From Escherichia phage phi-8: DNA of 5,035 bases. How positions within the stretch are numbered: position 1 is the first letter of the stretch; each line of letters opens with the position of its first letter. Of this stretch, positions 3,684 through 4,343 are shown one piece after another. The stretch lies in sequence record KF241843.1; one strand, written 5' to 3'. The notes under the pieces are model-generated. The model had not been told where the DNA came from, did not search any database, and saw nothing but the letters and a program-made list of their open reading frames with translations. The position numbers were made by a program, and so were the translations under genes.

Positions 3684-4343
3684 TTACCCAAACGTCTCTT
3701 CAGGCCATTGGCTGGCGATAACTTTCCCCACAACGGAACAACTCTCATTGCATGGGATCATTGGATATTGCGGGTTTAGTGGTTGTAGAAACACCTGGCC
3801 GCTATCCCTGATCAGTTTCTTGAAGGTAAATTCATCACCACCAAGTCTGGCTATGCAGAAATCGCCGGGCTCAACAGCTTGCTCAGGGTCAACCAGAATT
3901 AACATCCCGTCAGGAAAACTAGGTTTGGAACCTGTTGGTGCGGTCATTGAGTTACCTTCAACCTCAAGCCAGAATGCAGAGTCACTGGCTTTTTTGGTTG
4001 TGCTTACCAATCTCTCCGCATCACCTTTGGTAAAGGTTCTGAGTTCTGGAGAGAACATCCCAGCCTGAACATGAGAAAAAACAGGGTACTCATATTGTTT
4101 TTTAACTGGGGCCGATGAGTATTCGCCAACAGGTGAAAATGTCCCGTCGTGGTTGAATGATATGTTATCAATACCAAGGTATTTAAACACCACACCAATA
4201 TCACTAAGAGATGGATGACGAGATCCGCGCAACCAGTGTCCAATTCCACCCTGCGTCATACCTAGCTCTTCGGCTAACTTCTCTTGAGTTATGCCGAGCT
4301 CTTTCATTCTGGATCTAGCCAGTTCATACCATTTCATTTTCAT
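3684..4343 (-). CDS. cI: CI-type immunity repressor, 219 aa: novel HTH N-domain + lambda-type LexA-like (S24) C-domain
   Basis: Track ORF 3684..4385(-) begins at a TTG; more likely start is ATG at plus 4341-4343 (MKMKWYEL...) or 4335-4337 (AAGGA SD fits the latter for leadered transcripts). C-terminal ~130 aa ([21 protein letters not shown]...[12 protein letters not shown]) match my recollection of lambda cI CTD, with Ala-Gly cleavage site, GNSM serine and FTFKK lysine present. N-terminal ~90 aa are unlike lambda cI. Confidence 0.85.

Follow-up and report, generated by a model that had tools for sequence, protein, structure and literature searches.

[quoted passage not shown] In the 933W repressor, an HK022-type head is joined to an H-19B-type tail (PMC3202840). 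For phage VT2-Sa, Fattah et al. 2000, as cited in PMC10742460, described a CI protein whose homology to lambda CI is high in the C-terminal and low in the N-terminal part, and also noted cross-immunity between lambda and VT2-Sa. Lambda CI binds the VT2-Sa operators at 3.7-6.4 micromolar, compared with 0.2-3 micromolar for its own sites (PMC10742460, Genes 2023). The repressor of phage epsilon34 has a tail that is approximately 80% identical to those of lambda and HK97 and a head that is approximately 50% identical to those of phages L, VT2-Sa and Nil2 (PMC2629481). The BAA2326/P13374 repressor (O104:H4) has been characterized biochemically and is described as '61% identical to lambda' (PMC5977221).

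The phi-8 cI gene and its relatives among Stx phages

We analyzed a stretch of 5,035 nucleotides from Escherichia phage phi-8 (KF241843.1), referred to as the window. Positions 79-4986 aligned from end to end with early regions of many Stx phages, at a nucleotide identity of 99.7-99.9%. Matches to this 4.9-kb insert included 2851, Stx2a_WGPS4, 1717, the Stx1-converting phage AP005153, Stx2 II and the PA series. The genes are arranged in the order gam-kil-cIII-ea10 ... N - OL - 173-aa ORF - cI - OR - cro - start of cII. The terminal stretches 1-78 and 4987-5035 are without phage homology and consist of cloning-vector polylinker. Positions 1-64 were 100% identical to the 3,004-bp non-mobilizable plasmid NZ_CP124361, and we take the end strings to be the pGEM-T Easy polylinker (MCS). 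Because of these ends, the window is no segment of a native genome but a plasmid clone of a PCR product that spans a natural phage immunity region from gam to cII.

The cI repressor gene occupies 3684-4343 on the minus strand and comprises 219 codons and a stop codon at 3684-3686. Translation of the ORF gives a product of 219 amino acids (MKMKWYEL...EETFG). The start is annotated at 4337 or 4379 in other records; the ATG at 4343 is likely the start of a leaderless PRM transcript. Over its 660 nt, the gene agreed at 99.8% with the sequence annotated as cI in more than 40 Stx phage records, including VT2-Sakai, Nil2, the Stx1-converting phage, Stx2 II, 2851, 1717, YYZ-2008 and the PA series. The protein was 100% identical to CI of the Stx1-converting phage and of the non-Stx phage 2G7b, and VT2-Sakai CI differs from it by one residue (S211G). 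A single nucleotide of cI is specific for the clone (3798), and it is synonymous (Gly182). VT2-Sakai (BAA94122), Nil2 (CAC95084) and the Stx1-converting phage (BAC77937) thus carry the same cI gene as the window. Phages of the VT2-Sakai/Nil2 type (likewise Stx2 II, 2851, 1717, YYZ-2008 and PA-series Stx2a) also share the operators, cro, the 173-aa ORF and the terminator with the window.

Whole-length identity of CI, the same operators and the same cro, in a region of 99.7-99.9% identity, point to one assignment. With a probability of roughly 0.9, we regard the gene as encoding the CI prophage repressor of the VT2-Sakai/Nil2 immunity type, mosaic relative to lambda. Assignment to lambda immunity does not fit the window: its CI has no lambda-type N-terminal domain (17 of 83 residues identical, and no DNA homology upstream of 4094), its Cro is a 71-aa HTH_3 protein and not of the lambda type, and its operators read AAGTACATATTGTATTT and similar instead of following the TATCACCGCCAGTGGTA-type consensus. 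Identity with the BAA2326/P13374 repressor was considered and rejected as well, since the C-terminal domain (CTD) of P13374 CI is just 64% identical and its head is lambda-like.

Many Stx1 and Stx2 phages have this type of CI, as do non-Stx lambdoid prophages of E. coli. A full-length copy of cI was present in 776 of 5,426 complete E. coli genomes. About 435 further complete genomes matched only from query nt 250 onward, which is exactly the position of the joint described below, so these genomes carry the same tail on another head. The earlier note on this DNA had presented the DNA-binding head as new. The whole protein matches CI of VT2-Sakai, Nil2 and other Stx phages uniformly at 99.8-100%, so the head is different from that of lambda but holds no novelty. 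The combination of a lambda tail with a divergent head is already known: its publication dates from 2000, and it occurs commonly in E. coli. The gene is the one annotated as cI in a very frequent immunity type of Stx phages, and its discovery value is therefore low. It nevertheless illustrates domain-level mosaicism in textbook fashion, its joint lying in the conserved coding sequence of the cleavage-site region.

The boundary between head and tail

The N-terminal DNA-binding domain and linker comprise residues 1-83 (4095-4343, minus strand), with a Pfam HTH_3 domain at residues 11-58 (E = 1.9e-10). Residues 84-219 (3687-4094, minus strand) form a lambda-type CTD with a Peptidase_S24 domain (PF00717) at residues 87-209 (E = 1.1e-28). 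The best PDB matches were lambda repressor structures (3bdn, 8gmu, 2ho0/2hnf, 1kca and 1f39). Lambda CI undergoes autocleavage at the Ala111-Gly112 bond (lambda numbering), and alignment places the corresponding Ala94-Gly95 codons of the window at 4059-4064. The codons for Ser132 (3948-3950) and Lys175 (3819-3821) correspond to the catalytic nucleophile Ser149 and the general base Lys192 of lambda; all three features lie on the minus strand. HTH and S24 domains, the Ser/Lys dyad, an Ala-Gly site in the linker, divergent cI and cro with a tripartite OR and a second tripartite operator at PL are all those of a self-cleaving repressor of the LexA/CI type. Head and neighbouring Cro were 35% identical over 62 aa (E = 9e-13), which bears out the proposal that the two are paralogous.

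We compared the protein with lambda CI (NC_001416 37227-37940, P03034). From Tyr84 to the C-terminus, 135 of 136 residues were identical in a global alignment. Cleavage site, Ser/Lys dyad and the surfaces for dimerisation and cooperativity all fall within this stretch. The sole amino acid difference in the CTD is Leu112, where lambda has Trp (W129, mature lambda numbering), exactly the ERLV for ERWV exchange named in the earlier note. At the nucleotide level, the tail was 92.9-93.1% identical to lambda (93.1% for the BLASTN alignment of 3688-4094). The 29 codons that differ are scattered over the whole domain, and 28 of them are synonymous, which indicates very strong purifying selection on the CTD protein. 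The 7% synonymous divergence of the tail argues against a recent exchange with lambda itself.

HK97 and HK544 CI also shared 135 of 136 tail residues with the window, and the range of nucleotide identities including lambda was 92.9-94.4%. Among the CTDs compared, the three phages of lambda immunity (lambda, HK97 and HK544) scored 99.3% and 720R6 97.1%, followed by Salmonella phage epsilon34 with 80%, P13374 with 64%, VT1-Sakai with 61% and P22 c2 with about 46%. The claim that the CTD is closer to lambda than to other lambdoid repressors therefore holds against epsilon34 and everything below it. HK97 CI was considered as a third head type on the lambda tail and rejected, because it has lambda immunity, is 237 aa long and is near-identical to lambda CI throughout.

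The head behaves differently. Residues 1-83 shared 17 identities with lambda CI (20.5%), which are concentrated in the HTH (ELG.SQE...GM.Q.G.G), and the head is 18 aa shorter than that of lambda (83 versus 101 aa). It was 100% identical to VT2-Sakai-type heads and 47-52% identical to those of Salmonella epsilon34/SPN9CC-type repressors. Thus, a different HTH was correctly recognized at the outset, while its length of approximately 90 aa has to be corrected to about 83. Outside the E. coli lineage, epsilon34 gp46 and the SPN9CC/g341c-type repressors are the nearest relatives over the whole length. The epsilon34 repressor is homologous to the window CI across the junction, with an alignable linker (47% identity in the N-terminal domain (NTD), 80% in the CTD). 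Both halves of these repressors are nevertheless far more divergent, and their CTD DNA is only 73% identical. The 933W repressor is likewise a Stx-phage mosaic with a joint between head and tail (PMC3202840). It is built from other head and tail alleles, and its tail is reported to be non-cooperative, in contrast to the cooperative lambda allele of the window.

Along cI, a 30-nt sliding comparison with lambda stayed at chance level throughout the head (0.13-0.40, about 0.25) and then rose to 0.83-1.00 (about 0.93), the step lying at window position 4094/4095, which is nt 250 of the gene. Consistent with this, BLASTN of the window against lambda aligned nothing within cI except 3688-4094. The first 32 shared nucleotides (TATGAGTACCCTGTTTTTTCTCATGTTCAGGC, 4063-4094, minus strand) are identical to lambda, and the DNA directly upstream is unrelated to it. 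The step falls between codons 83 and 84, corresponding to E100/Y101 of lambda, ten codons upstream of the Ala-Gly cleavage bond. The homology ends on the other side with the cI stop codon, beyond which lambda carries rexA and the window an unrelated sequence. The sharp step together with the 28 synonymous codons out of 29 makes an intragenic recombination joint in the cI linker, where a breakpoint had been predicted, a well-supported reading of the sequence. Relative to lambda, the mosaic most probably arose when homologous recombination took place within the conserved DNA coding for the region around the cleavage site.

Reassortment of heads and tails

We wondered how general such combinations are and searched the tail alone against a collection of 5.8 billion proteins, from which about 97 representatives were compared. 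The top two clusters were the lambda type (237 aa, 1,175 sequences) and the window type (231 aa with the long start, 1,686 sequences). Below them followed a continuum of tails with 76-89% identity, on which four classes of heads were found (lambda-like, VT2-Sa-like, epsilon34-like and VT1-Sakai-like). Among the representatives, 46 pairs had tails at least 95% identical and heads less than 40% identical, for example P0063/P0064 (tail 100%, head 32%) and P0004/P0008 (tail 99%, head 26%). Another 35 pairs had heads at least 90% and tails at most 88% identical. In one E. coli protein of 214 aa (P0040), the head and the first third of the tail are those of VT1-Sakai, and the sequence after FWLEV is identical to lambda. 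This protein shows a second recombination joint, inside the S24 domain.

Similar patterns were seen among alleles with the window-type head. E. coli A65EC differs from the window cI at 1 of 249 nt in the head and at 15 of 408 nt in the tail, and all of these tail differences are synonymous. Taking DE17 and A65EC together, which encode the identical protein, 7-15 of 408 tail nucleotides differ compared with 1 of 249 in the head, suggesting an ongoing exchange of tail segments among alleles with the same protein. 720R6 has a window-type head (94%), and its tail DNA is 93.4-94.4% identical to lambda/HK97 but 91.2% identical to the window. The tail patterns of 720R6 and A65EC argue for repeated exchange of tail segments. 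As these comparisons show, reassortment of heads and tails is routine across enterobacterial prophage repressors. The CTD comes from a shared pool of alleles that has been combined again and again with at least four unrelated or distantly related head types in prophages of the Enterobacterales.

Could head and tail have a single vertical history with lambda CI, the head having merely evolved faster under diversifying selection for new immunity? Phage repressor heads do diverge faster than tails, as the 47% and 80% identities between epsilon34 and the window illustrate, and the window and lambda heads have some HTH residues in common (17 of 83). A uniform descent is difficult to reconcile with a tail that is approximately 7% divergent at the nucleotide level, almost entirely through synonymous changes, next to NTD DNA at approximately 25% identity, with the change occurring within a few nucleotides. 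The unequal lengths of the two heads, the partner Cro proteins from different families and the occurrence of one CTD allele with several heads and of one head with several CTDs also speak against it. As synonymous divergence follows a step function, this explanation is effectively refuted, and we consider it very improbable. Still less credence is due to a laboratory artefact, that is, an engineered hybrid repressor or a PCR recombinant between lambda and a Stx phage. The vector polylinker at 1-78 and 4987-5035, flanks without phage homology, would fit such an origin, but the same arrangement recurs in over 40 phages that were sequenced independently and in the 776 complete E. coli genomes. 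Moreover, a CTD with just 93% nucleotide identity to lambda does not derive from laboratory lambda, and the one clone-specific nucleotide of cI is silent.

The direction and number of the events are a different matter. It is about an even chance that lambda or the imm-lambda lineage took its CTD from a VT2-Sa/epsilon34-type repressor, or that segments of the CTD were exchanged repeatedly once the first joint had formed. Lambda-like heads (63-70% identity) occur on CTDs that are about 85% identical, and VT2-Sa-like and epsilon34-like heads on CTDs that are 80-86% identical. The 720R6 tail, closer in its DNA to lambda/HK97 under a window-type head, the synonymous tail differences of A65EC and the additional breakpoint inside the P0040 CTD also fit. 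Nothing in the sequences contradicts this view, which refines the main explanation, recombination at the linker between a lambda-type tail and a different head, and does not replace it.

Operators, proposed function and the Leu112 substitution

All six operators annotated in VT2-Sakai and the Stx1-converting phage had exact matches in the window, three between cI and cro and three upstream of N. Putative OR3 (TATTACGCTCTGTACTG, 4352-4368) equals the operator annotated in VT2-Sakai and the Stx1-converting phage; putative OR2 (ATGCACAATGTGTATTT, 4378-4394) and OR1 (4410-4426, sequence given above) equal those annotated in VT2-Sakai. The OL region (2123-2197) holds three putative 17-bp operators that also agree with the VT2-Sakai annotation, namely OL1 (2123-2139), OL2 (2148-2164) and OL3 (2181-2197). 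The distance from the centre of OL1 to that of OR1 is 2,287 bp, which is similar to lambda. The half-sites follow the consensus A-A-G/A-T-A-C-A-A, with A5 and C6 invariant in 12 of 12 half-sites. They read AAGTACAA in the window versus TATCACCG in lambda and agree only at positions 2, 5 and 6 (A, A, C). The operator consensus proposed for epsilon34 (WTACRAWWTGTAT) resembles the window sites (PMC2629481). A different operator specificity, as had been proposed, is in line with these six sites, which are unlike those of lambda. In view of the cross-immunity and the micromolar binding of lambda CI to VT2-Sa operators, the two specificities may nonetheless overlap somewhat.

A minus-strand PL-like promoter, whose -35 is at 2150 and whose -10 ends at 2122, overlaps OL1 and OL2. 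The cI start codon (ATG at 4343) has a TAATAA hexamer ending 7 nt in front of it, and a poor -35 element adjoins OR2, suggesting a leaderless PRM that might be activated by the repressor as in lambda. The cro gene (4454-4669, plus strand) encodes the 71-aa HTH_3 paralogue of the CI head and lies outside the lambda Cro fold family to which lambda Cro belongs. The general layout is shared with lambda: cI is followed by accessory gene(s), a homologous terminator and OL, and OL and OR are about 2.3 kb apart. A segment at 2244-2359 (minus strand) was 86.7% identical to lambda 35708-35826, the interval between OL3 and rexB, and contains an intrinsic terminator (2359-2338, minus strand) at which, according to the VT2-Sakai annotation, the PRM transcript ends. 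The cI operon therefore ends in a lambda-like terminator, and the genes between this terminator and cI are replaced. In place of rexAB, the window carries an unrelated 173-aa ORF (2661-3182, minus strand; phrog_2602), which is H0093 in VT2-Sakai and ORF22 in Nil2. Pfam and PADLOC scans of this ORF gave no hit; it may be an accessory or exclusion gene expressed from the prophage. About 500 nt between this ORF and cI (3183-3683) are apparently non-coding.

From likeness to lambda we infer DNA binding, cooperativity and RecA-dependent cleavage for the window CI, as well as activation of PRM. The HTH_3 domain (residues 1-83) would be expected to bind the six operators of 17 bp, of which OR and OL contain three each. 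By recognizing the half-site consensus, it would repress PR and PL and probably activate the leaderless PRM. The S24-peptidase domain, a lambda allele at the protein level, would mediate dimerisation, pairwise and long-range OL-OR cooperativity and octamer looping. RecA*-stimulated autocleavage would take place at Ala94-Gly95 through Ser132 and Lys175. Lambda-like cleavage and cooperativity are expected because the tail shares all but one of its 136 residues with the lambda CTD. If the tail sets RecA sensitivity and cooperativity, it would influence toxin release upon induction of Stx phages.

The Leu112 codon (TTG, 4008-4010, minus strand) stands at the position of lambda Trp129. Of the 96 repressor representatives scored, 94 have Trp there, among them epsilon34, P13374, VT1-Sakai and the sublineage of the window repressor with 92% identity (720R6, EC581 and 914033). 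Leu112 was found only in the sublineage with at least 97.6% nucleotide identity, which comprises O157 Stx phages, 2G7b, DE17 and A65EC, and it was present in all close Stx-phage records examined (Stx1-converting phage, VT2-Sakai). A cloning error was considered as its source and rejected, as the residue also occurs in Stx phages, phage 2G7b and E. coli DE17 and A65EC. A literature search on lambda Trp129 found nothing relevant. The substitution could alter cleavage or folding, and lambda-like kinetics are not guaranteed. Located between the cleavage site and the catalytic core, Leu112 could tune the rate of autocleavage and hence the threshold of induction, which, if true, would affect the Shiga toxin output of these phages. 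All in all, the exchange of Trp for Leu is only a mildly unusual detail of the window cI.

As the tails are identical at the protein level and E. coli often carries several lambdoid prophages, mixed oligomers are conceivable: in one host, the window CI and imm-lambda repressors could form mixed dimers and mixed cooperative tetramers or octamers. Through such oligomers, the immunity and induction of heteroimmune prophages would become linked or be disturbed, and the reported cross-immunity between lambda and VT2-Sa could have its cause here. We regard these two linked ideas, mixed oligomers with imm-lambda repressors and tuning of autocleavage by Leu112, as unlikely.

Further differences were noted elsewhere in the window. 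The gam-kil-cIII-ea10 segment (79-1366) was 98.4% identical to lambda, well above the 93% of the cI tail, so that the two are neighbouring mosaic blocks with different histories. The N antiterminator (1660-2004, minus strand; 114 aa, Pfam N_peptide) is annotated as HK97-like, whereas VT2-Sakai, with the same immunity region, has an annotated N of the 933W/H-19B type with 90 aa; this implies a further mosaic boundary just left of OL. Compared with the Stx1-converting phage AP005153, a T-run at 4424, at or after OR1 and in the putative PR -10, is 1 bp shorter, and a cluster of ten substitutions lies in the cII start region (4784-4960). Both probably represent natural variation, because 2851 and WGPS4 are 99.9% identical to the window overall.
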